Virus record (IMG/VR): IMGVR_UViG_2718218132_000001
Source: a virus
Lineage: Duplodnaviria > Heunggongvirae > Uroviricota > Caudoviricetes
Strand: one strand, 5' to 3'
DNA length: 36,946 bases
Shown: piece by piece, positions 935-35,831 of the stretch
How positions within the stretch are numbered: position 1 is the first letter of the stretch
Layout of the letters: each line of letters begins with the position of its first letter
The notes under the pieces: model-generated
What the model was told of the DNA's origin: nothing
Databases searched by the model: none
What the model saw: only the letters and a program-made list of their open reading frames with translations
Position numbers and translations under genes: made by a program

Positions 935-2620
935 GTGAATATAAACGTCGCCGAATTGTTAAATGGGAATTACATTCTGTTATTATTTGTGGTCCTCGCG
1001 CTTGGGCTATGTCTCGGAAAGTTACGACTTGGTTCGATCCAACTGGGTAATTCCATTGGCGTTTTAGTCGTATCGCTGTTATTAGGCCAACAACATTTCA
1101 GCATTAACACCGATGCGCTTAATCTTGGCTTTATGCTGTTTATTTTCTGCGTCGGGGTCGAAGCCGGACCGAACTTTTTTTCCATTTTTTTTCGCGATGG
1201 GAAAAATTACCTAATGTTAGCACTGGTGATGGTTGGCAGTGCGCTGGTGATCGCCTTAGGGTTAGGTAAGCTGTTTGGCTGGGATATTGGCCTGACGGCC
1301 GGTATGTTAGCAGGCTCTATGACGTCGACACCGGTTCTGGTCGGTGCTGGCGATACACTGCGTCATTCCGGCATGGAAAGCAGGCAGCTCTCACTGGCAC
1401 TGGATAATCTGAGCCTCGGGTATGCCTTAACCTATTTAATCGGTCTGGTGAGTTTGATTGTTGGTGCGCGTTACTTGCCGAAATTGCAGCATCAGGACTT
1501 ACAGACCAGCGCCCAGCAAATCGCCCGCGAACGTGGCCTGGACACTGATGCCAACCGTAAGGTTTATTTACCGGTGATCCGCGCCTATCGCGTCGGCCCG
1601 GAACTGGTGGCCTGGACCGACGGCAAAAATCTGCGTGAACTGGGTATTTATCGACAAACCGGCTGCTACATTGAACGTATTCGACGTAACGGGATTCTGG
1701 CAAATCCAGACGGTGATGCCGTGCTACAAATGGGCGATGAAATAGCGTTGGTAGGCTATCCCGACGCCCATGCCCGACTCGATCCCAGCTTCCGTAACGG
1801 TAAAGAAGTTTTCGATCGTGACCTTCTCGACATGCGTATCGTCACTGAAGAAGTGGTCGTTAAAAACCATAACGCTGTAGGTAAACGTCTCGCACAACTG
1901 AAGTTGACCGATCACGGTTGCTTCCTTAACCGCGTCATTCGTAGCCAGATTGAGATGCCGATAGATGACAACGTCGTGCTTAACAAAGGTGACGTTTTAC
2001 AAGTCAGCGGCGATGCCCGCCGCGTAAAAACCATCGCCGATCGCATCGGCTTTATCTCGATTCACAGCCAGGTCACTGACCTGCTGGCATTCTGCGCCTT
2101 CTTTGTTATTGGGCTGATGATCGGGATGATCACCTTCCAGTTCAGCACATTCAGTTTCGGCATGGGGAACGCTGCCGGGTTGTTATTCGCCGGAATTATG
2201 CTGGGCTTTATGCGTGCTAACCACCCGACCTTCGGTTACATTCCGCAGGGTGCATTAAGCATGGTGAAAGAGTTCGGCTTGATGGTGTTTATGGCAGGCG
2301 TTGGTCTGAGCGCCGGTAGCGGTATTAATAACGGCCTGGGCGCGATTGGCGGTCAGATGTTGATTGCCGGATTGATTGTCAGTCTGGTGCCCGTGGTTAT
2401 CTGTTTCTTGTTCGGTGCTTATGTATTGCGAATGAACCGCGCGCTGTTGTTCGGCGCAATGATGGGCGCACGTACCTGCGCGCCGGCAATGGAGATCATC
2501 AGTGATACAGCTCGCAGTAACATCCCGGCGCTGGGCTATGCGGGCACCTATGCAATCGCCAACGTCCTGCTGACGCTGGCAGGGACAATCATCGTCATGG
2601 TATGGCCAGGATTAGGATAA
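935..2620 (+). CDS. ybjL: Putative transporter YbjL (AAE family; two permease halves flanking cytoplasmic TrkA-C-like domains)
   Basis: 561-aa ORF with N- and C-terminal polytopic hydrophobic halves around a soluble central region; synteny with grxA and ybjM. Confidence 0.85.
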
Positions 2621-2732
2621 AACTGAAGTTGCCCTGAAAATGAAATTTTTTTGCACAACCGCAGAACTTTTCCGCAGGGCATCAGTCTTAATTAGTGCCA
2701 CTGCTTTTCTTTGATGTCCCCATTTTGTGGAG

Positions 2733-2776
2733 CCCATCAACCCCGCCATTTCGGTTCAAGGTTGATGGGTTTTTTG
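2733..2776 (+). terminator. 10-bp perfect-stem hairpin (CCCATCAACC...GGTTGATGGG) followed by T6; terminator-like element near the host/prophage junction
   Basis: Inverted repeat 2733..2742 / 2760..2769 with a 17-nt loop, then tttttt; the large loop is atypical, so this could instead be part of the att region. Confidence 0.4.
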
Positions 2777-2855
2777 TTGCCTGAAATTTAAGCTGTTTAA
2801 AATCATGATGTTAGAAACACTGTTTTTTAACGATGGCGACAAAATGGCGGCAGCG

Positions 2856-3074
2856 TCAAAGAGAGAGCGCCACCTGTCCTGATTTCATTGGATGCGGCTG
2901 AACCGGATTTGACTCTTTTGGCGTTGCAATCGAACGAACAAAAGTTTCATGGGTAACAAAAGTATGGCTGCAGTTAATGTTCTGGCACTGGTTGTAACGC
3001 TCTTTGGTCAATGAAGATACCTGAAAACTGCTGCGAGTATGGGCGGCACTTCCACACAGTGGGCAAATCATCAT
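2856..3074 (-). CDS. ogr: Ogr/Delta-family zinc-finger late transcription activator
   Basis: CPLCGSAAH...CQNINCSHTF Cys4 zinc-finger pattern as in P2 Ogr; start placed at an internal Met to give 72 aa; position beside gpD at the prophage end. Confidence 0.8.
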   Translation of the reverse strand: MMICPLCGSAAHTRSSFQVSSLTKERYNQCQNINCSHTFVTHETFVRSIATPKESNPVQPHPMKSGQVALSL

Positions 3075-3164
3075 TTTTCGAGCTCTCCCAATTTTTGCTA
3101 AATTCACAATAATGATACCGCATTATTCCATTTTGCAAACTTAAAAGTTCTCCATTGCGAAGAA

Positions 3165-24653: not shown

Positions 24654-24968
24654 TTAGTTTCTATAATTAGAAATATAGTCATCCATTTTAGCCTGCTCTA
24701 TGATTCCACTATTTTTAATATACAAAACATTTGCCCAATCAAAATACTCACAAAGAATAACAATCATAGTCAAAAGCTTTTCATCAGTCATATTTATTAA
24801 CAGCTCATATTGTTCAGCTTTTTTTTCACTTTCAACTTTATCATCTATCAACTTCACCAAAAGATAAAATCTTCTTACCAAAGAGAAAAAATGATCATCA
24901 ACATCTAAACTTTCCAACCATGCAATGATTCTTTTCTTTTCTATTCCAGCTCTAACCAAGATGCTCAA
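24654..24968 (-). CDS. Hypothetical protein; probable C-terminal part of the upstream membrane protein, split by a frameshift at a G8 tract
   Basis: Starts only with TTG; its frame is open upstream to 25040 and a 1-nt change in the G8 tract (25032..25039) joins it to ORF 24986..25399. Confidence 0.45.
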   Translation of the reverse strand: MSILVRAGIEKKRIIAWLESLDVDDHFFSLVRRFYLLVKLIDDKVESEKKAEQYELLINMTDEKLLTMIVILCEYFDWANVLYIKNSGIIEQAKMDDYISNYRN

Positions 24969-24985
24969 GTTATCATCAATGAAAG

Positions 24986-25399
24986 TTATAGCATTATTAG
25001 ATCTATACTCAATAAGTGTAGGTTCTTTGGTCCCCCCCCTTTACTTTCATCATCATTATCTGCTCCATTACCGATTACAATACGCAATTTATTATAATTA
25101 GAATCTTGAGATTCAATTAGACAGAAAAACCTCACTTCAAATTTTTTGTAATCTTCAAGTAACTCTTGTCTTTTTATCTCTTGTTTCAATGTTGAGTTAG
25201 ACTGCACTTGTAAAGTTACAGAGCGAATCAGCAGGCAAATCGAGATAAAACTTAGTATAGGATTCAGGACCCCACCCATGAAGTCCCCAAATTGCCCCCA
25301 AACATCAGCATCTTGAGTACTTAAGTACCAGGGGCCAAACTTAATACAATAAACCCCCAAAACTATTATTATAAGAGCTAAACAAATTATTTTTAACAT
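24986..25399 (-). CDS. Hypothetical membrane protein (two N-terminal TM helices); N-terminal part of a probably frameshifted roughly 250-aa gene
   Basis: ATG lies 1 nt after the stop of the upstream gene; hydrophobic N-terminus; low GC; ends shortly after the G8 tract. Confidence 0.55.
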   Translation of the reverse strand: MLKIICLALIIIVLGVYCIKFGPWYLSTQDADVWGQFGDFMGGVLNPILSFISICLLIRSVTLQVQSNSTLKQEIKRQELLEDYKKFEVRFFCLIESQDSNYNKLRIVIGNGADNDDESKGGGPKNLHLLSIDLIML

Positions 25400-25400
25400 C

Positions 25401-26219
25401 TTACTGCACCGTATGCACTAAATATTTCACAGTTTCCCCACTGTTAATTATTACCCGACTTACAGTCAGTTCAAGATAAATATAACCAGCAGTGGAAGGC
25501 GGATTATTTACATGTAAGTTAGCCGAAATCATTCTTTTTTGAGCTGGAATGATGACACGTAAGGGGCTATAAAACCCAAATGCCACCGTATCATTTTCGC
25601 CCTCAAGAACAAGCCTACCATTGCCAGTGCGAGCATTAAATCTTGTAATATAAGCCCTGATTACTTCAGTCTTTTTTAAAACACGTGATGTGAATAAATT
25701 TGTTGCAGTAGATGTATCTAATTCAATTACTTTTTTCTTATCATGGGCACGCTGTTTAAAATTTAACTCGATATTATAGTTTTTTTTGAGGTTAATTTCA
25801 TGCATTCTTTTTAGAGGAGCTCGAATACGACCTATCAACTCATCCTCAATATCCGATAAACCTTTAACTACTTCTTCCGCTTCATTGGAAAGTTCGCGAC
25901 TCTCTAAATATAATGATTGCGAAATAAAGAAACTCATCACTTCATTAAATACTGGTTTAGATATTTTGCGAAGTTCTGATACCAGTTCAGCATCATTAAT
26001 AACCAAGTCAAAATTTTGACCATAAGAACCGGTGAAATTCCTCTTGAGTACAGCCCTTGCAGGATTTACATGAGAGCGGCGCTTTATTATTACTTTCCTA
26101 AGTATAGCCTCCGCCAACAAGCAAGTAACCTCTGCAGTTCCTGCAAGCGTGTCGAGACCGTATTCCATATCTACTTCATCATCGCCGCTTTTGATAATAA
26201 CATCGTAATTAACTCGCAT
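25401..26219 (-). CDS. Hypothetical protein (272 aa), first gene of an AT-rich cargo operon between portal Q and cos
   Basis: AAGGAAAG RBS 5 nt before the ATG; candidate -35 TTGACT upstream; no family recognised by eye. Confidence 0.6.
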   Translation of the reverse strand: MRVNYDVIIKSGDDEVDMEYGLDTLAGTAEVTCLLAEAILRKVIIKRRSHVNPARAVLKRNFTGSYGQNFDLVINDAELVSELRKISKPVFNEVMSFFISQSLYLESRELSNEAEEVVKGLSDIEDELIGRIRAPLKRMHEINLKKNYNIELNFKQRAHDKKKVIELDTSTATNLFTSRVLKKTEVIRAYITRFNARTGNGRLVLEGENDTVAFGFYSPLRVIIPAQKRMISANLHVNNPPSTAGYIYLELTVSRVIINSGETVKYLVHTVQ

Positions 26220-26255
26220 TTTCTTTCCTTACGAAAATAATTGCTTCCATTTTGG

Positions 26256-26284
26256 GATTAATCTTAAATTAGCATAGCAGTCAA
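26256..26284 (-). promoter_or_regulatory. Candidate sigma70 promoter for cargo operon 1 (-35 TTGACT, 17-bp spacer, -10 TTAATC)
   Basis: Hexamers read directly on the minus strand about 35 to 65 nt upstream of the 25401..26219 start codon. Confidence 0.3.
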
Positions 26285-26323
26285 TGTTTTTGAACAGCAT
26301 AATCCTAAAAGCGGTAGCGCGCG

Positions 26324-26342
26324 CTCGTATCCCCGCCACGCC
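26324..26342 (-). other. Candidate cos site (cohesive-end region)
   Basis: Minus-strand GGCGTGGCGGGGATACGAG resembles the 19-nt cohesive ends of 186 and P2 as I recall them (first 13 nt match my recollection of 186). Confidence 0.4.
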
Positions 26343-26458
26343 TGCCCGCTTTATGTAGTAGTTTTCATGCAGGTGCATGATCTACGCGAAAGCCCGCCAA
26401 TTCTGGCGGCCCTAGCAAAAACGATCCTCAAACGATCATGCGATCTCATGCAGCATAG

Positions 26459-27301
26459 TCATGCACGATCATTTGACTCAGCATCTGCTGCACGCTTGCT
26501 GCGCGAAGATGCACTTTTACTATCAATCTTTCGACAGTTCTTTCTATCCCTGGCTTCATTTTCTTTAAATTTGTTATATGTCTCAGTATCAAAAAACGAA
26601 ATTGTTTCAACCTCATCTTTTGGTATGAGCACACGGAAATCTTCGATATTAAGCCGAGACATTCCACTTATCACACCACTATCAAGATAATGTTGGTGAT
26701 AGTTAGTCGTGATACTAATCGTTAGATCATCTTTATCCCGATATCCGCTTAACATCGGGAGAAGTTCAAGGTGCTCTGAAAGCCCGTTTTCTAACGCCGG
26801 ACAAGTAACAAGACCAACATAGATTTTGCGAGACGACAGAGTTGCTATGATCGGAAACTGTCTTGCGGACGCTTCCATGAGTAATGATTCGAAAGCGTTA
26901 TTACCCACAGCTTTAGCTAAGGCATCCCAGCGACGATCTCCACGTGATGTGCGTAACTTATTTCCAAAACCTGAAATCGCAGCGAGGACAATTGAAATCA
27001 TAACCCATGCTATCTGTTTGATTTCATTTATTCTTTGAAGTTTGTCTTTCGATGAAGACAACATGCCATTAAAACTGTCAGGTGTTAGATTCAAGGCATT
27101 AGCCAGCCAACGAAACCCTCCGCTGACGTTCAAAATAAAGGTGAAAAAACCGCCAAGGAGAAAAAAAACGATACCCCAGGCAGCCACAAAAAAATAAGCG
27201 TCCCAGCCGTTGGAACGCTTATATCGGTATCTTGTTGAAAGTGATAGGTTTACATAAATAAAACCACTAACCAAAATCACTGCTAAAAGTAATGTTGCCA
27301 T
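26459..27301 (-). CDS. Hypothetical polytopic membrane protein (280 aa) with a soluble C-terminal domain
   Basis: Three to four N-terminal hydrophobic helices; translationally coupled (TAATG) to the upstream 71-aa ORF; AT-rich. Confidence 0.6.
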   Translation of the reverse strand: MATLLLAVILVSGFIYVNLSLSTRYRYKRSNGWDAYFFVAAWGIVFFLLGGFFTFILNVSGGFRWLANALNLTPDSFNGMLSSSKDKLQRINEIKQIAWVMISIVLAAISGFGNKLRTSRGDRRWDALAKAVGNNAFESLLMEASARQFPIIATLSSRKIYVGLVTCPALENGLSEHLELLPMLSGYRDKDDLTISITTNYHQHYLDSGVISGMSRLNIEDFRVLIPKDEVETISFFDTETYNKFKENEARDRKNCRKIDSKSASSRSKRAADAESNDRA

Positions 27302-27516
27302 TATCTGGTTCTATTAGTTTTCTCTTTTACAGTGCTCGTTTTGATGCCTTCAAGCTTATCCATCTGTGCCTTGATGGCATCCATTGCTCTTTTGTTAGAC
27401 AAGTCTACGGACACAAAACCATCTTTACTAAGATTGAGTTTGTCCTGGTTCTCTTTAAGAACCCTTGCCAGACGTTCAACTGGGTTACCCAGGCTAAATG
27501 CGGCGATGCTTGACAT
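27301..27516 (-). CDS. Hypothetical small protein (71 aa), first gene of cargo operon 2
   Basis: ORF whose stop overlaps the start of the membrane-protein gene; basic C-terminus; no family recognised. Confidence 0.5.
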   Translation of the reverse strand: MSSIAAFSLGNPVERLARVLKENQDKLNLSKDGFVSVDLSNKRAMDAIKAQMDKLEGIKTSTVKEKTNRTR

Positions 27517-27786
27517 AACTCCCCCTTTTCACATGGCGCGGAAGTCTACACTCCGACGCCTACAACCTCAACAGATTATCTTTAAAATTTAGACAACAAT
27601 ATCATCTGTTGATTGCGTTACTTAAACTTAAGTTCAATGCGCTCGATCATGCAAGCTGTTTCTTAAGAACTGTTAATTTCCTAGCATATATAGTGGTTAA
27701 GGTAACAAATTGACACTAACGCCTCGCATAGCTCGTTGTTCAACCTTGCTGACGCCAGAAGCAAGTTCAGACGCCAGCAACGTTTC

Positions 27787-28020
27787 TTAATGCAGCCAGC
27801 TGTCGTCTTCCCACACCTTCTGCATAATTTTCATCACTTGTTTTCTTTCTTCGTCCAGTTGCAATCCGGTCAGTTCCACACCGTTAGAGCTACCTTTGCG
27901 GATACGAATTACCGTTTTGGGATACAGAGGACGCAGATTGCGGTAAAGCTCGGATTCAAGGGCGTCCAGGGTAGACTGGCTAATCTTCTGCTCTTTATCG
28001 ATCATTATTTCAATGCGCAT
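27787..28020 (-). CDS. DinI-family protein
   Basis: 77 aa; MRIEIMIDKEQKIS...ALESELYRNL...MKIMQKVWEDDSWLH closely parallels E. coli DinI as I recall it. Confidence 0.8.
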   Translation of the reverse strand: MRIEIMIDKEQKISQSTLDALESELYRNLRPLYPKTVIRIRKGSSNGVELTGLQLDEERKQVMKIMQKVWEDDSWLH

Positions 28021-28031
28021 AAAAAGTCACC

Positions 28032-28220
28032 TCAACTGATGACATCCATTGAGCGGTTGTATTCGTGGGTTCTGATTTTTGCCATGAGTTCATCTGTTAG
28101 TTCAGAAACCCACTGCAAAGCCAGCCCCTTCTCTTCATCACTACACTCACTAGCCGCTACAAGCTTAAGAAAAAAATCAATGCGCTGGAGCTTCAAAGAC
28201 TCCAAAAAATAGTCCTGCAT
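28032..28220 (-). CDS. Hypothetical small protein at the position of the 186 tum antirepressor; LexA-controlled
   Basis: Strong RBS (AGGAGGAAAG), with a CTGT-N8-ACAG LexA box 44 nt upstream of the start codon. Confidence 0.5.
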   Translation of the reverse strand: MQDYFLESLKLQRIDFFLKLVAASECSDEEKGLALQWVSELTDELMAKIRTHEYNRSMDVIS

Positions 28221-28263
28221 CTTTCCTCCTATGACACCAAAGCAATACTGTATACATAACCAC

Positions 28264-28279
28264 TGTTTATATTTACAGT
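28264..28279. promoter_or_regulatory. LexA operator (SOS box) CTGTTTATATTTACAG
   Basis: Perfect CTGT-N8-ACAG with an AT-rich spacer; a second weaker half-site lies at 28250..28261. Confidence 0.6.
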
Positions 28280-28372
28280 ATATAATAATCTTACTGATGT
28301 AAAACGTTTTTTTACGTTCATCAGCCTGATATGCCTGGTATTATTAAGAGCACGAATTGTTAACCCGCGTAA

Positions 28373-30787
28373 TTAATACAGATCCCGCCACTTATCATCT
28401 TCCTGCAAACGCTGGTTCCGATAGAAGATACGCAGGCCTGCTCCTGACGGAATACTGCCACCGCGAAGGAGTAAATCGACCTCTTTCTCGCTGCCATCAA
28501 ATCCTCTGGACTTCAGTTCATAGACGAGCTGCTGTCGCTGATGATCTGTAATTCGCTGTTTGTAGTCTCTACGCCGTTTCGGTTTCACCAGGCGTAACCT
28601 TGCAGCCAGTTCCCGGCGCTCTTTTTTGCTCATACTGTGCAGGTAATCGTGCAACTCCTTGTCATCCATACAGGTAATGTCAGTTCTGGGATCCCCATCT
28701 GTTGATTTATCTTTCTCCTGTTGGTTCAAATTTTCAGCAAGGGGACAGTTATTGCCACGAGTCCAAGGGGCGCAAGCGCCCTGGTCGGCTGCCGCCTCCT
28801 GAACATCAACGGCCTTACGAACCATTTTCCACTTCACGGCATGAGTGCAGATCTTGCCCTCTGCAATAGGTGACCAGATGCCATAAATACGAATGCCGTG
28901 ATCGCCATAGGCGGTCGGCTCTTCGTTGATTTCATAAGCGGTTCTGATGAGGTGATATTTGCGGGGAACCAGTACGCCGCCCTGCTTCATGATGTAGGTG
29001 GCAAAACAACCAGCATCAGCAGCAGCCAGGATGGCATCAAGGCGTGGGTTATCCAGTACCGGCGCACCTGCTTTTTTGTCCCCCTGTTGCCTTGCCGCCT
29101 GACCAGCCAGCAATCGCAGTTCACGGTAAGCCTGACGCCCCGGAATGCCAAAGAAGCGGAATTGCTGAACACGATGCAGAGACGCCCAGGCATTAACGTA
29201 TTCAGCATTATCACGCAGGGATTTCCCCGTTTCCTTGCTGATCTCGCCAGCCAGACCACGCCCGTCAATGTTCTTACTGATGTATTTCGCGATGTAGCTT
29301 GTTGGCGTTCCTTTGCGCGGGTTAATCAACTCAGACTTAAAGCGCGGCCCAGTGTTATTGCCCAGCTCCTCGCGGTCTTCACGGATGGCAAACTTACGCA
29401 GTAATGCAGTGATGGCACGGCGGTCTTTTTTGCGCATGAAACACAACAGGTGCCAGTGAACTGTGCCGTCATGATGCGGCTCAGCCACCCGCACGCCATA
29501 CCAGCGCAACCCGGCTTTGTGCATCGCCTTACGAAATGCAGCAAACATGCCGACCAGATAATCGCTGCTTTGTCTTACCGTCGCGTTTGTCCAGGTCGGG
29601 TTTGGTCTGCCGTTATTGAGCGTGGAATGGAAACGTGACGGACAGGTGATGGTGTAGAAAACGGCGCAGTCACCGCGCATTTCCGCGATAAGCTCCAGAC
29701 CTTTAACACAGGCCATCATCTCATTGCGACGATGCGCCGGGTTGCTGCTGCTGGCGTTTACCACATCCTCCATGTCCAGCGTGTCGCCGTCTTCGTTCAC
29801 CAGTTCATGAGAACGGAAAAACTCCAGCGACTTACGGCGCTGCTCACGTTTATGCATCACGGCTTCATAGCTGACATAGGGAGATGCTTTTTTGCTGACC
29901 AGGCAGACAGCACGCAACTGCTCTTCCCGCCATTCGCAACGCATCTTCCATAATTTCCGATACCACCAGTCGGCGCACAACATACGCGCCAGCGAACCCG
30001 GAATGAGTTCATAGGGCACGGGTTTACGGCGGTTTCTTTTCCGACGGAGTTGCTCAAACGCAGGAGGGATTACATCCAGACGCAGGGTTTCCGCTGCCAC
30101 CTTTTCCCATGTCTTGCGGATTTCTTCTGGCTTAACGTCATCGGTGGCATACAAATCACCACAAGCTGCATCAAGGCACATGCTCATATGCGCGGCAACA
30201 AGGGTAGACAGGCGCTTCACCTGATCCTGACTCATTTCAGGCAGGATCAGCAGGCCGTCCAGCCCTTCATGGCTTGCCATAAAGCGAAAAGAAGTGGATA
30301 GCTGACTCTCGCGTACATGCTCCAGTCGTTCCAGACATGGCTTAATCGTCTCACGCAAATAGCGGGAATAAGCCTTTGGCCTGCCCAGGCTGCTGAAGTA
30401 TTCAATACGTTGCATCAGCGGCTTGCTGATATGGGAAGGCTGGGCGTTGACGTCCGCCAGAATGACCATATCCGGATTAAAACGCTGCTGCTCATGCGCC
30501 AGCTTTGCCCGACTAATGAGCTTATCCTGCTCGATTTCGCGCTGGACAGGATCACGGGATTCATTAAAGAAATAACGCTCCCAGACCTGATCACTCAGCG
30601 CCTCACGGCGCAGCTGTTCCTGCTCGTTATCGGCAGCGTACAGAGTGATCAGGTTTGAAAGCGCAGAAACCGGCGCAACTTCCGCCGGGTCCAGATAAGG
30701 GTTAATGGCCTTTTTCGGGCTGCTCCATGAGAATGCTGCTGCGACCTCGTTAAAGCCGCTGCAGTTGTTCATATCAGCATGGCTCAT
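28373..30787 (-). CDS. A: Replication initiation endonuclease (gpA, rolling-circle initiator)
   Basis: 804-aa ORF, P2 gpA family; position between the Dam gene and the tum-like region. Confidence 0.9.
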
Positions 30788-33537: not shown

Positions 33538-34134
33538 ATGTCAACATCAAAGTACCCAAATGAGATCAAAATAAATCCCAATAAAGGTGGTAAGGCTGCG
33601 ATTGAGCGATTAGTCGAAGCTTATGGCTTTACGACACGACAGGCTTTAGCTGATCACTTGGAAGTATCAAAAAGCACTCTGGCGAACAGGTATTTGCGGG
33701 ATACGTTTCCTGCAGACTGGATAATCCAATGTGCTCTTGAAACAGGAACCTCACTGAAATGGTTAACCACCGGGCAAGGCCTTAAGCAAAGCTCGCTGAC
33801 AGCAGCTACAGAAGAGCTTGCCAAGTTTCGCCTTACCGCAGGCAAAATGATTGAAGATGGTTCATATGTCTTCGATTCATCATTTCTTCCTGCAAATCTT
33901 TCATCACCAATTGTTATTCAGGATGGGCTCGTCACATACATTTGTGATCAAAAATTTTCTGAAGTACTTGATGGGCACTGGTTAATCAACATCGACGGAA
34001 CCTATTCCATTCGAAAAATCACAAAGCTTCCAAAAGGTATGATTAAAATTACAAGTACAGAGAATAGCTTTGAATGTGCATTTTCTGATATTGAAGTAGT
34101 TGCTTGTATAAGAAGTACAATAGTTTCAAATTAA
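33538..34134 (+). CDS. cI: CI-type immunity repressor (186 CI-like)
   Basis: 198 aa with an N-terminal HTH region (TTRQALADHLEVSKSTLANRY); divergent from apl-cII. Confidence 0.75.
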   Translation: MSTSKYPNEIKINPNKGGKAAIERLVEAYGFTTRQALADHLEVSKSTLANRYLRDTFPADWIIQCALETGTSLKWLTTGQGLKQSSLTAATEELAKFRLTAGKMIEDGSYVFDSSFLPANLSSPIVIQDGLVTYICDQKFSEVLDGHWLINIDGTYSIRKITKLPKGMIKITSTENSFECAFSDIEVVACIRSTIVSN

Positions 34135-34154: not shown

Positions 34155-35831
34155 ATGAATTCATTTTCCATCGTTATATTCTTATTAGCATTTCTCGCCC
34201 CCATTCTAGCTGTAATATTATTTAAGCAAAGCAAAAAACATAAAGCGGCTATAGATACCTTGACAGCTAACAACATAGCCCTTTCCAACCAACTGAAAGA
34301 AAATCAAGAAGAATTAGCACAGACTGTACGAGATCTATCAGAGCTTGAAGGACGAGCTGCACCATTATGGCAATACGTAGAATTGCACAGCGCAGTGATG
34401 GAAGCAGAGAATAAGATAAAAAATGCAGACTCAATAGCCAGGCAAAAAATAGAAGAAGCCCAAATAAAGGCTGCTAAGACAGTAAACGAAGCAAATTATC
34501 AAGCTCAGATAAAAATAAGCAACGCTAATAGCGAAGCTATAGCAATTACTAAAGACGCTCGCGATGCACGCCTGAAAGCTAAAGAACGTCTTGATAATGC
34601 CAATAGTAAAGCAAATGAGCTGATCTCAAATGCTAATGACAATGCAGTGAAGATTATTTCCGATGCAGAAGAAAGAGCAAAAGAGATTGCTGGTTCAGCA
34701 TATGAAGCTAAAGAATTTGCAGAAAAATATGAAGCAGTTGCCAAATCAATGAAAAATAAAATTGAAGGTTATGGTGATGAATGGATCATCCCTAACCGTA
34801 GCGTTCTCGATGAATTGGCAGAAAATTATGAGTTTACAGATGCAGGCAAGGAATTACAAAAAGCCAGGGAGTTAACAAAATCATTAATAAAAACTAATAA
34901 AGCTGCTTCGTGTGATTATGTTGAACAAAACAGGCGTAATACTGCTATCAACTTTGTTTTAGATGCCTTCAATGGAAGAGTTGACAGTATTTTATCAAAA
35001 GTCAAACACAACAATTTTGGAAAACTTTCCCAAGAGATAAAAGATGCGTTTCAACTTGTAAATTACAATGGTTCTGCCTTTAGGTCCGCAAAAATAAGTG
35101 ACATCTATCTTCAAGCTCGACTCAACGAGCTAAAATGGGGTGTTGCAGTTAATGAAATTATGCTCGAAGAAAAAGAAGAGCAAAGAAGGATTAAAGAACA
35201 ACTTCGTGAAGAGGAAAGAGCTCGTAGGGAGTATGAAAAAGCGATAAAAGAAGCTGAAAAAGAAGAGAAAGCTATTCAGCAAGCTATAAATAAAGCAACA
35301 AAAGAGCTTATGCTTGCAAATGAAGAACAACGCTTAGCTTTAGAGCAAAAAATAGCTGAACTACAGTTAAAATATGAAGAAGCTGAAGCTAAAAACCAAC
35401 GAGCTATTTCTATGGCTCAACAAACTAGATCAGGCCACGTTTATATAATTAGTAATATTGGCTCATTTGGCGAAGATGTATATAAAATTGGAATGACACG
35501 CCGCCTTGAACCACTTGATCGTGTTCGTGAACTCGGTGATGCTAGTGTTCCTTTTTCGTTCGATGTTCATGCGATGATTTATAGTGATGATGCACCATCA
35601 TTAGAAAATCATCTGCATAAAGTCTTCAACGAAAAACAGGTCAATAAAATTAACTCACGAAAAGAGTTTTTCAACGTAAATATTAAAGAAATTAAGTCTG
35701 TTATTGAAGATATGAACATCAACGCACAATGGACAATGTTTGCGGAAGCGAAAGAATATAGAGAGTCACTGGCGATTGAGCAAGAGCGCAAAGCAGCAAC
35801 TTCCGCCAACGATGAACTGCATGTTGCTTAG
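34155..35831 (+). CDS. Membrane-anchored coiled-coil protein with C-terminal T5orf172/GIY-YIG-like domain (DUF4041-type); lysogeny-operon cargo
   Basis: N-terminal TM helix, about 350 aa of Ala/Glu/Lys/Asn-rich coiled-coil, C-terminal HVYIISN...YKIGMTRRLEPLDRVREL...PFSFDVHAM motif pattern; AT-rich. Confidence 0.7.
   Translation: MNSFSIVIFLLAFLAPILAVILFKQSKKHKAAIDTLTANNIALSNQLKENQEELAQTVRDLSELEGRAAPLWQYVELHSAVMEAENKIKNADSIARQKIEEAQIKAAKTVNEANYQAQIKISNANSEAIAITKDARDARLKAKERLDNANSKANELISNANDNAVKIISDAEERAKEIAGSAYEAKEFAEKYEAVAKSMKNKIEGYGDEWIIPNRSVLDELAENYEFTDAGKELQKARELTKSLIKTNKAASCDYVEQNRRNTAINFVLDAFNGRVDSILSKVKHNNFGKLSQEIKDAFQLVNYNGSAFRSAKISDIYLQARLNELKWGVAVNEIMLEEKEEQRRIKEQLREEERARREYEKAIKEAEKEEKAIQQAINKATKELMLANEEQRLALEQKIAELQLKYEEAEAKNQRAISMAQQTRSGHVYIISNIGSFGEDVYKIGMTRRLEPLDRVRELGDASVPFSFDVHAMIYSDDAPSLENHLHKVFNEKQVNKINSRKEFFNVNIKEIKSVIEDMNINAQWTMFAEAKEYRESLAIEQERKAATSANDELHVA

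Follow-up and report, generated by a model that had tools for sequence, protein, structure and literature searches.

The question raised by this locus is whether two short open reading frames (ORFs), which together resemble one known phage protein, are the pieces of a broken gene or a working pair. They lie in a stretch of 36,946 nucleotides (nt) of Caudoviricetes DNA (IMG/VR record IMGVR_UViG_2718218132_000001; the whole stretch is referred to as the window), on the minus strand and 3' of the gene for a P2/186-type replicase (gene A). The initial annotation noted that the SOS-inducible antirepressor Tum of phage 186 occupies this position as a single larger protein with a DinI-like C-terminal part, and proposed either a frameshifted tum or a naturally split antirepressor/DinI pair. 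This background is accurate: in 186, the LexA-repressed p95 promoter drives a single Tum protein of 146 amino acids (aa) just 3' of gene A. Of the two proposals, the natural pair stands and the frameshift does not. The two-gene form is a natural arrangement, and the module very probably serves, as a tumA-tumB operon, the SOS induction of a prophage of the 186/Fels-2-like type (Peduoviridae). A split tum module is already known, having been named in phage PSP3, discussed in print for Fels-2 and genetically tested in DuoHS, a prophage of E. coli HS.

Gene A (28373..30787, minus strand) matches Pfam Phage_GPA PF05840 (E 6.7e-128) and encodes a rolling-circle replicase of the P2/186 gpA type. It is the 5' neighbor that anchors the module in the phage map, and the gene order is that of 186, PSP3, Fels-2 and DuoHS. 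A 152-nt intergenic region separates its end at 28373 from the 62-aa ORF (ORF62, tumA; 28220..28032, minus strand), the antirepressor half. Translation of tumA begins at an ATG that is preceded, at a distance of 4 nt, by the Shine-Dalgarno sequence AGGAGG (28230..28225, minus strand), kept in HS and Fels-2; the early description of this ORF as strongly initiated is thus borne out. The tumA TGA (28034..28032) is separated by 11 nt from the ATG (28020) of a 77-aa ORF (ORF77, tumB; 28020..27787, minus strand), which lies in a different frame (offset of 200 nt). The tumB Shine-Dalgarno sequence, GAGGTG (28033..28028, minus strand), overlaps the tumA stop codon, which suggests translational coupling of the two genes. 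A small hairpin on the minus strand (28043..28026, GTCATC…GGTGAC followed by five T) covers the tumA stop and the tumB ribosome binding site (RBS). It is not above chance in a generic promoter/terminator scan; a structure at this position could couple translation of tumB to that of tumA.

Both ORFs behave as coding sequences. Synonymous to non-synonymous codon differences relative to E. coli HS and Fels-2 number 4:1 and 3:1 for ORF62, and 5:0 and 4:0 for ORF77. An antisense ORF of 158 aa across the module (27736..28212, plus strand) had no family match. Similarity to HS and Fels-2 ends at the tumB stop codon, which marks the end of the conserved module. A stem-loop lies directly 3' of this stop (27780..27746, minus strand). 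As it lacks a U tract and folds no better than shuffled sequences (z = -1.3, not significant), we do not claim a terminator; it is at most a weak one.

We conclude that ORF62 is a remote homolog of the N-terminal half of Tum. BLASTP produced no alignment of ORF62 to either 186 Tum or PSP3 TumA, but this reflects the limited sensitivity of the method for short proteins and is not evidence of absence. Residues 6-40 of ORF62 align in the same register with Tum 6-40, without gaps, at a Smith-Waterman score of 57 (shuffles 21.4 ± 4.0; Z = 8.8; score reached in 0 of 5000 shuffles). Profile comparison with hhalign matched residues 2-45 of the ORF62 family to residues 2-45 of the 186-type Tum N-terminal family (96.4% probability, E 1.3e-9). 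PSP3 TumA falls into the same superfamily (profile comparison gave E 1.9e-5 with the 186 type and 0.0039 with the ORF62 type), and the motif C-x3-D/E-x2-L/I-A-L is common to the ORF62 and Tum N-terminal families. Assignment of ORF62 as TumA, the Tum N-terminal module, is based both on this homology and on its position 3' of gene A, in a phage whose CI repressor is of the 186 type.

Other resources offered little for ORF62. No Pfam or PADLOC family covers it, its PHROGs family (phrog_698) is listed as of unknown function, and its family profile matched nothing among PDB sequences. AlphaFold2 predicts a two-helix hairpin (helices 2-23 and 28-61; predicted local distance difference test score, pLDDT, of 88), for which a Foldseek search of the PDB returned generic helical hairpins alone, none at E <= 0.001, and was uninformative. 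The exact sequence of ORF62 occurs on at least 1000 contigs, and it shares 98.4% identity with both Fels-2 STM2728 and ECHS_RS04495 of E. coli HS. Some public records call the protein 'levan regulatory protein' or 'levan regulatory domain protein', a name without support here.

ORF77 is a member of the DinI family, as the initial annotation had it. It matches Pfam DinI PF06183 with E 6.6e-23 (81.3 bits against a cut-off of 24.2) and the E. coli DinI structure 1GHH over its full length (E 2.7e-6). End to end, it aligns with 186 Tum 71-145 (41% identity, E 3e-24). ORF62 thus corresponds to the N-terminal half and ORF77 to the C-terminal half of Tum, so the two ORFs are the Tum halves in their original order. 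ORF77 is 100% identical to Fels-2 STM2726.1 and 78% identical to PSP3 TumB. Its exact sequence was found on at least 1000 contigs, and its UniRef cluster is named after DINIR_ECOLX ('DinI-like protein in retron Ec67'). Based on family membership only, TumB may bind RecA filaments or otherwise modulate the SOS response. In relatives with a 10-nt spacer between the genes, annotations of the DinI-like gene often give 101 aa, from an upstream start that overlaps tumA. The 11-nt spacer of the present locus abolishes this extension, an argument for the 77-aa form as the real product.

The module is preceded by a consensus LexA operator. The LexA box reported upstream of ORF62 was recovered: the core CTGTTTATATTTACAG at 28263-28278 (plus strand) is the sole CTGT-N8-ACAG match in the window. 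The bare pattern is not significant, as 0.5 matches are expected and at least one occurred in 40 of 100 shuffles. A search with the 20-mer LexA consensus TACTGTATATATATACAGTA, allowing up to three mismatches, found a single site in the window (28261-28280) and none in 100 shuffles. This site, box 1, reads TACTGTAAATATAAACAGTG on the minus strand (core CTGT-N8-ACAG at 28278..28263), matches the consensus at 17 of 20 positions and is unchanged in E. coli HS DuoHS and Fels-2. The second half-site reported at the outset is also real (GTGGTTATGTATACAG, 28263..28248, minus strand). It forms the core (GTGG-N8-ACAG) of box 2, CAGTGGTTATGTATACAGTA (28246..28265, minus strand), which has one base in common with box 1. 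Both half-sites are also found intact in HS and Fels-2, with variation in the spacer. The operator at 28246-28280 therefore consists of two 16-bp LexA boxes that overlap by one base and are placed at the promoter, the organization of colicin-type double SOS operators.

Promoter elements were read from the sequence and by analogy to 186. The putative -35 (TTTACA, 28303..28298, minus strand), equivalent to that of p95, lies 17 nt 5' of a putative -10 (TACTGT, 28280..28275, minus strand) inside LexA box 1; TACTGTAAATATAAACAGTG (28280..28261) opens with this TACTGT. TATACT (28283..28278) is an alternative -10. The layout is that of the annotated 186 p95 promoter (TTCACA, 18 nt, TACTGT), where the -10 likewise overlaps the LexA site. 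Repression of tumA by LexA at this locus is predicted from the consensus operator over the -10, and has been shown genetically for the 97%-identical DuoHS locus. A hairpin upstream of the -35 (28324..28294) was considered and dropped, as it had no covariation support in HS and Fels-2.

Double operators of this kind are known from colicin and pesticin promoters. A BLAST search with a 51-nt operator query against 7.3 Gb of plasmid sequence returned 214 plasmid records (E values from 1e-5 to 2e-3), mostly small mobilizable Col-type plasmids together with Y. pestis pPCP1. The matches lie directly upstream of the genes for pesticin (pst, on pPCP1), colicin R (cra) and colicin Y (cya), where the operator is 86-92% identical over 37-42 nt. 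Both boxes align column by column and share the same one-base overlap, whereas the -35 regions and everything else beyond the boxes are unrelated to the present locus. The colicin and pesticin boxes govern bacteriocins, but here it is a prophage antirepressor that is controlled. Colicin double boxes are reported to bind two LexA dimers and to give very tight repression (PMC2994835), and by analogy the present operator may also hold two dimers. The double operator is shared with HS and Fels-2, whereas 186 p95 and PSP3 have a single LexA box. We found no description of a double operator for tumA in the literature that could be consulted.

Comparison with characterized phages shows how far the function of this locus can be anticipated. 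The closest tested relative is DuoHS, for which deletion of tum and a lexA(Ind-) mutation, which makes LexA non-cleavable, each abolish lysis and virion production upon mitomycin C treatment (the Phollow study, Nat Microbiol 2025, PMC12055606). According to the supplement of that paper, the deleted gene is ECHS_RS04495, which is the 62-aa 'hypothetical protein' 5' of the DinI-like gene ECHS_RS04500. The deletion primers (…AGGAGGAAAG-ATG-TGA-GGTGACTTTTATGCGCATTG) join the start of the ORF to its stop and leave the DinI ORF in place (PMC12055606). DuoHS and the present prophage share ~97% DNA identity across the operator, tumA and tumB, the same double LexA operator and the same chromosomal integration site next to ybjL/rybB. 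Their TumA proteins differ by one residue (T51S, 98.4% identity). DuoHS differs in its spacer (10 nt rather than 11), its CI repressor (55% identical) and the cargo genes 3' of tumB. Fels-2 has the pair as STM2728 and STM2726.1 (TumA 98.4% and TumB 100% identical) in the same position after gene A and under a double operator, but the Fels-2-type CI is only ~44% identical overall to the present one and the downstream gene is another.

PSP3 (NC_005340) has the two genes after gene A, controlled by LexA, and names both. Its record describes tumA as 'similar to 5' end 186 tum; UV induction of prophage'; for tumB the entry reads 'similar to dinI and 3' end of 186 tum'. PSP3 TumB is 78% identical to ours. 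PSP3 TumA belongs to the same superfamily but reaches only about 22% identity; in addition, the genes are split in frame (a TAG plus 3 nt) and the LexA box is single. PMC3121763 states that Fels-2 and PSP3 carry tum in two parts and that the upstream gene of PSP3 is the antirepressor. Phage 186 has the same position, LexA over the -10, the two protein modules in the same order and the same type of CI/Apl/CII switch; it differs in that the modules are fused in one polypeptide, within which internal starts also give short DinI-like forms. The 280-aa ORF downstream of tumB, the only one compared, has no detectable similarity to 186 orf97. More distant are the dinI-gfoA/gftA modules of Gifsy-1/2/3, in which LexA represses a DinI homolog and a small antirepressor that binds uncleaved repressor (PMC3121763). 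These differ in having the reversed order (dinI first) and in belonging to lambdoid phages with another repressor family. Our scan of protein representatives for ORF62 relatives returned short proteins only, with no annotated relative (GfoA and GftA were not compared directly).

From these comparisons, the probable course of events in a lysogen can be proposed. In the undamaged cell, LexA on the double overlapping SOS operator would cover the -10 region and keep the operon off. Upon DNA damage, LexA self-cleavage stimulated by RecA would free the promoter. TumA, predicted to be an acidic helical hairpin of 62 aa, would then be made and would bind the 186-type CI stoichiometrically, without cleavage. 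CI would no longer hold the lytic promoter, and the prophage would enter lytic growth. TumB would be translated from its own RBS overlapping the tumA stop; its most likely role is to modulate RecA filaments or the SOS signal, not to act on CI. The window itself contributes to this scheme both genes, their homology to the Tum halves, the LexA operator and the cI/apl/cII switch of the same prophage; near-identical or related phages contribute, through the work of others, the dependence on LexA and the requirement for the 62-aa gene (DuoHS), the antirepressor activity of the upstream half (PSP3) and the binding of Tum to CI (186). Binding of Tum to CI, which blocks operator binding, is cited for 186 in PMC3121763. 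It is known biochemically only for 186 Tum, and is predicted for TumA by analogy.

The presumed target of TumA, a 186-type immunity repressor gene (cI; 33538..34134, plus strand; PF07022 E 8e-32, PF16452 E 4e-27), is present in the window. The switch region encodes CI, an Apl/Cox-like ORF, CII (CP76), DUF5347, DUF2732, a TraR/DksA-type zinc-finger protein, a Dam methylase and gene A. The prophage extends from ybjL/rybB to int at the window end, which is the DuoHS site in E. coli HS. CI is 55% identical overall to DuoHS CI (78% over the N-terminal domain) and ~44% identical overall to the Fels-2-type CI (seen in RE2010). TumA is 98-100% identical across phages in which the overall identity of CI to the present one is only 38-55%. 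Because the tum partner is nearly invariant where CI has diverged, the tum region and cI appear to have been exchanged independently. We found no description of a near-invariant TumA across diverged CIs in the literature that could be consulted.

Splitting CI by domain gives a pattern to this divergence. We compared 12 phages, a small sample in which shared ancestry was ignored. In every phage with the present TumA type, the N-terminal DNA-binding domain of CI is 72-84% identical to ours. In ESSI2 it is 62% identical and TumA 49% identical, and in 186 and PSP3 the values are 42-47% for the domain and about 21-22% for the Tum N-terminal half. The C-terminal domain of CI is 26-42% identical throughout the 12 phages. 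TumA identity correlates with that of the CI N-terminal domain (Spearman 0.80, p 0.002, 12 phages, kinship ignored), and the correlation with the C-terminal domain is not significant (Spearman 0.28). The correlation hints that TumA contacts the CI N-terminal domain.

Several explanations other than a working SOS induction operon have been considered. One holds that a single tum ORF was frameshifted, by sequencing error or recent decay, and that the pieces do not work as in 186. It would explain why the two ORFs lie 11 nt apart in different frames when 186 has one 146-aa protein, and fused 146-aa forms are indeed common (one cluster has 245 members). However, many phages have the identical two-gene layout, as do about 1,080 of the 5,426 complete E. 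coli genomes. The same 700 bp were found in 1,125 of the 5,426, with at least 80% covered in 1,077, and among the matches listed every E. coli entry reads 'DinI-like family protein | hypothetical protein | replication endonuclease'. Among phage records (Klebsiella, Escherichia, Salmonella, Yersinia, Cronobacter), 56-66 carry this DNA, likewise annotated as two genes. Both ORFs change mainly synonymously and each has its own RBS. The spacer varies without harm from 11 nt here to 10 nt in HS and Fels-2 and 3 nt (after an in-frame TAG) in PSP3, so a fixed frame relation is not required. Removal of one base would not restore a Tum-like linker, and among 1.84 billion representative proteins no ORF62-type sequence is fused to DinI; all 66 ORF62 relatives are short. 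The 186-type N-terminal half is also found free-standing, as 'Tum protein' genes of 63-92 aa. At two loci (L020 and L021; 3001-3192) a 186-type TumA-like gene of 63 aa comes after gene A; the next gene encodes a DNA methylase, and a DinI-like gene is absent. The two halves are thus separable, and the family has three architectures: fused, split and TumA only. Neither sporadic disruption nor relaxed constraint, the marks of a frameshifted pseudogene, was found, and the near-identical DuoHS copy is functional. We regard the frameshift as refuted by its distribution and by the DuoHS genetics, and give it almost no credence.

The remaining alternatives accept two intact genes. The module may have been recombined beside another immunity region, so that TumA does not neutralize the CI of its own prophage, which would then not be SOS-inducible, or TumA may act in trans on other 186-like prophages. 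The contrast between a nearly constant TumA and a variable CI fits such a mismatch, and crosstalk by trans-acting antirepressors is documented for Gifsy and Fels-1 (PMC3121763). We nevertheless consider this improbable, although less so than the frameshift. CI divergence is restricted to the linker and C-terminal domain, the identity of the N-terminal domain drops to 42-47% in 186 and PSP3, bearers of other Tum types, and a non-functional combination would hardly be so frequent. It has also been considered that the DinI-like TumB is the real inducer (e.g., via RecA), with the 62-aa protein an accessory or a leader for TumB expression. The genes do look translationally coupled, with the tumB RBS overlapping the tumA stop within the small hairpin, and the DuoHS tumA deletion might have lowered TumB. 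That deletion, however, left in place the start and stop codons of tumA as well as the tumB RBS (primer NHR28), and antirepressor activity in PSP3 maps to the upstream gene (PMC3121763). Deletions of dinI homologs in Gifsy prophages were without effect on induction (PMC3121763), 186-type TumA is found without any DinI gene, and annotation gives the truncated DinI-like forms of 186 Tum a modulating rather than an inducing role. An inducing role for TumB is thus very improbable, hardly more credible than the frameshift.

An operon in which TumA is the inducer remains the preferred explanation, and the following points weigh against it. The present copy is known from sequence alone. Its CI is 55% (DuoHS) and 44% (Fels-2 type) identical to those of its relatives, and the match between TumA and CI rests on the N-terminal domain. 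Because CI is only 55% identical to that of DuoHS, we infer, rather than conclude, that TumA acts on the CI of its own prophage. If the genes are coupled, the in-frame deletion in DuoHS could lower tumB translation, so that TumB might contribute to the phenotype. The antirepressor assignment in PSP3 is a personal communication cited second-hand, as it appears in PMC3121763. Finally, the hexamers of the SOS promoter were not called by a generic promoter scan; it missed them because the -10 matches TATAAT at only three of six positions.

Other genes of the window were identified alongside the module. At one end are ybjL (aspartate:alanine antiporter family; 935-2620, plus strand), the small RNA RybB (2700-2778, plus strand; 105 bits) and the prophage ogr gene (2856-3107, minus strand). 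Between cI and int, a gene of 558 aa (34155-35831, plus strand) matches PADLOC PD-Lambda-1 (E 4e-120) and has DUF4041 and T5orf172/MUG113 domains; it is likely a prophage-borne anti-phage defense gene. Five ORFs (71, 280, 272, 137 and 104 aa) occupy 24654-27516 (minus strand) between tumB and the portal gene, with no Pfam or PADLOC assignment save a weak ZorB/MotB-like match for the 137-aa ORF. The stretch 26400-28400 is mostly covered in only 52 of 1,143 matching E. coli genomes. E. coli EC590 is 100% identical to this 2-kb stretch, which takes in the module. The five ORFs lie in the variable cargo region of P2-like phages, which may include an undescribed defense system.

As a discovery, the identification of the operon adds little, since a split tum is found again; anything new would lie only in the operator type and the relation between TumA and the CI domains. 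The result has value for annotation. Most phage records, and about a fifth of complete E. coli genomes, list the 62-aa gene as 'hypothetical protein', and Pfam has no family for it; yet it is the switch that decides the SOS inducibility of very common P2/186-like prophages. We would give somewhat less than an even chance to a further proposal: that TumA of the Fels-2/DuoHS type is a broad-range antirepressor that recognizes the CI N-terminal domain of 186-type repressors, and may act, in cis or in trans, to induce prophages in which the linker and oligomerization domains of CI are at 27-42% identity, with its expression gated by the colicin-type double LexA operator. If this is true, the double operator would be expected to repress more tightly than the single-box p95 of 186 and to raise the threshold for induction. 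The double SOS box and the tracking of the CI N-terminal domain by TumA thus provide testable hypotheses on the tightness and promiscuity of induction in these prophages.

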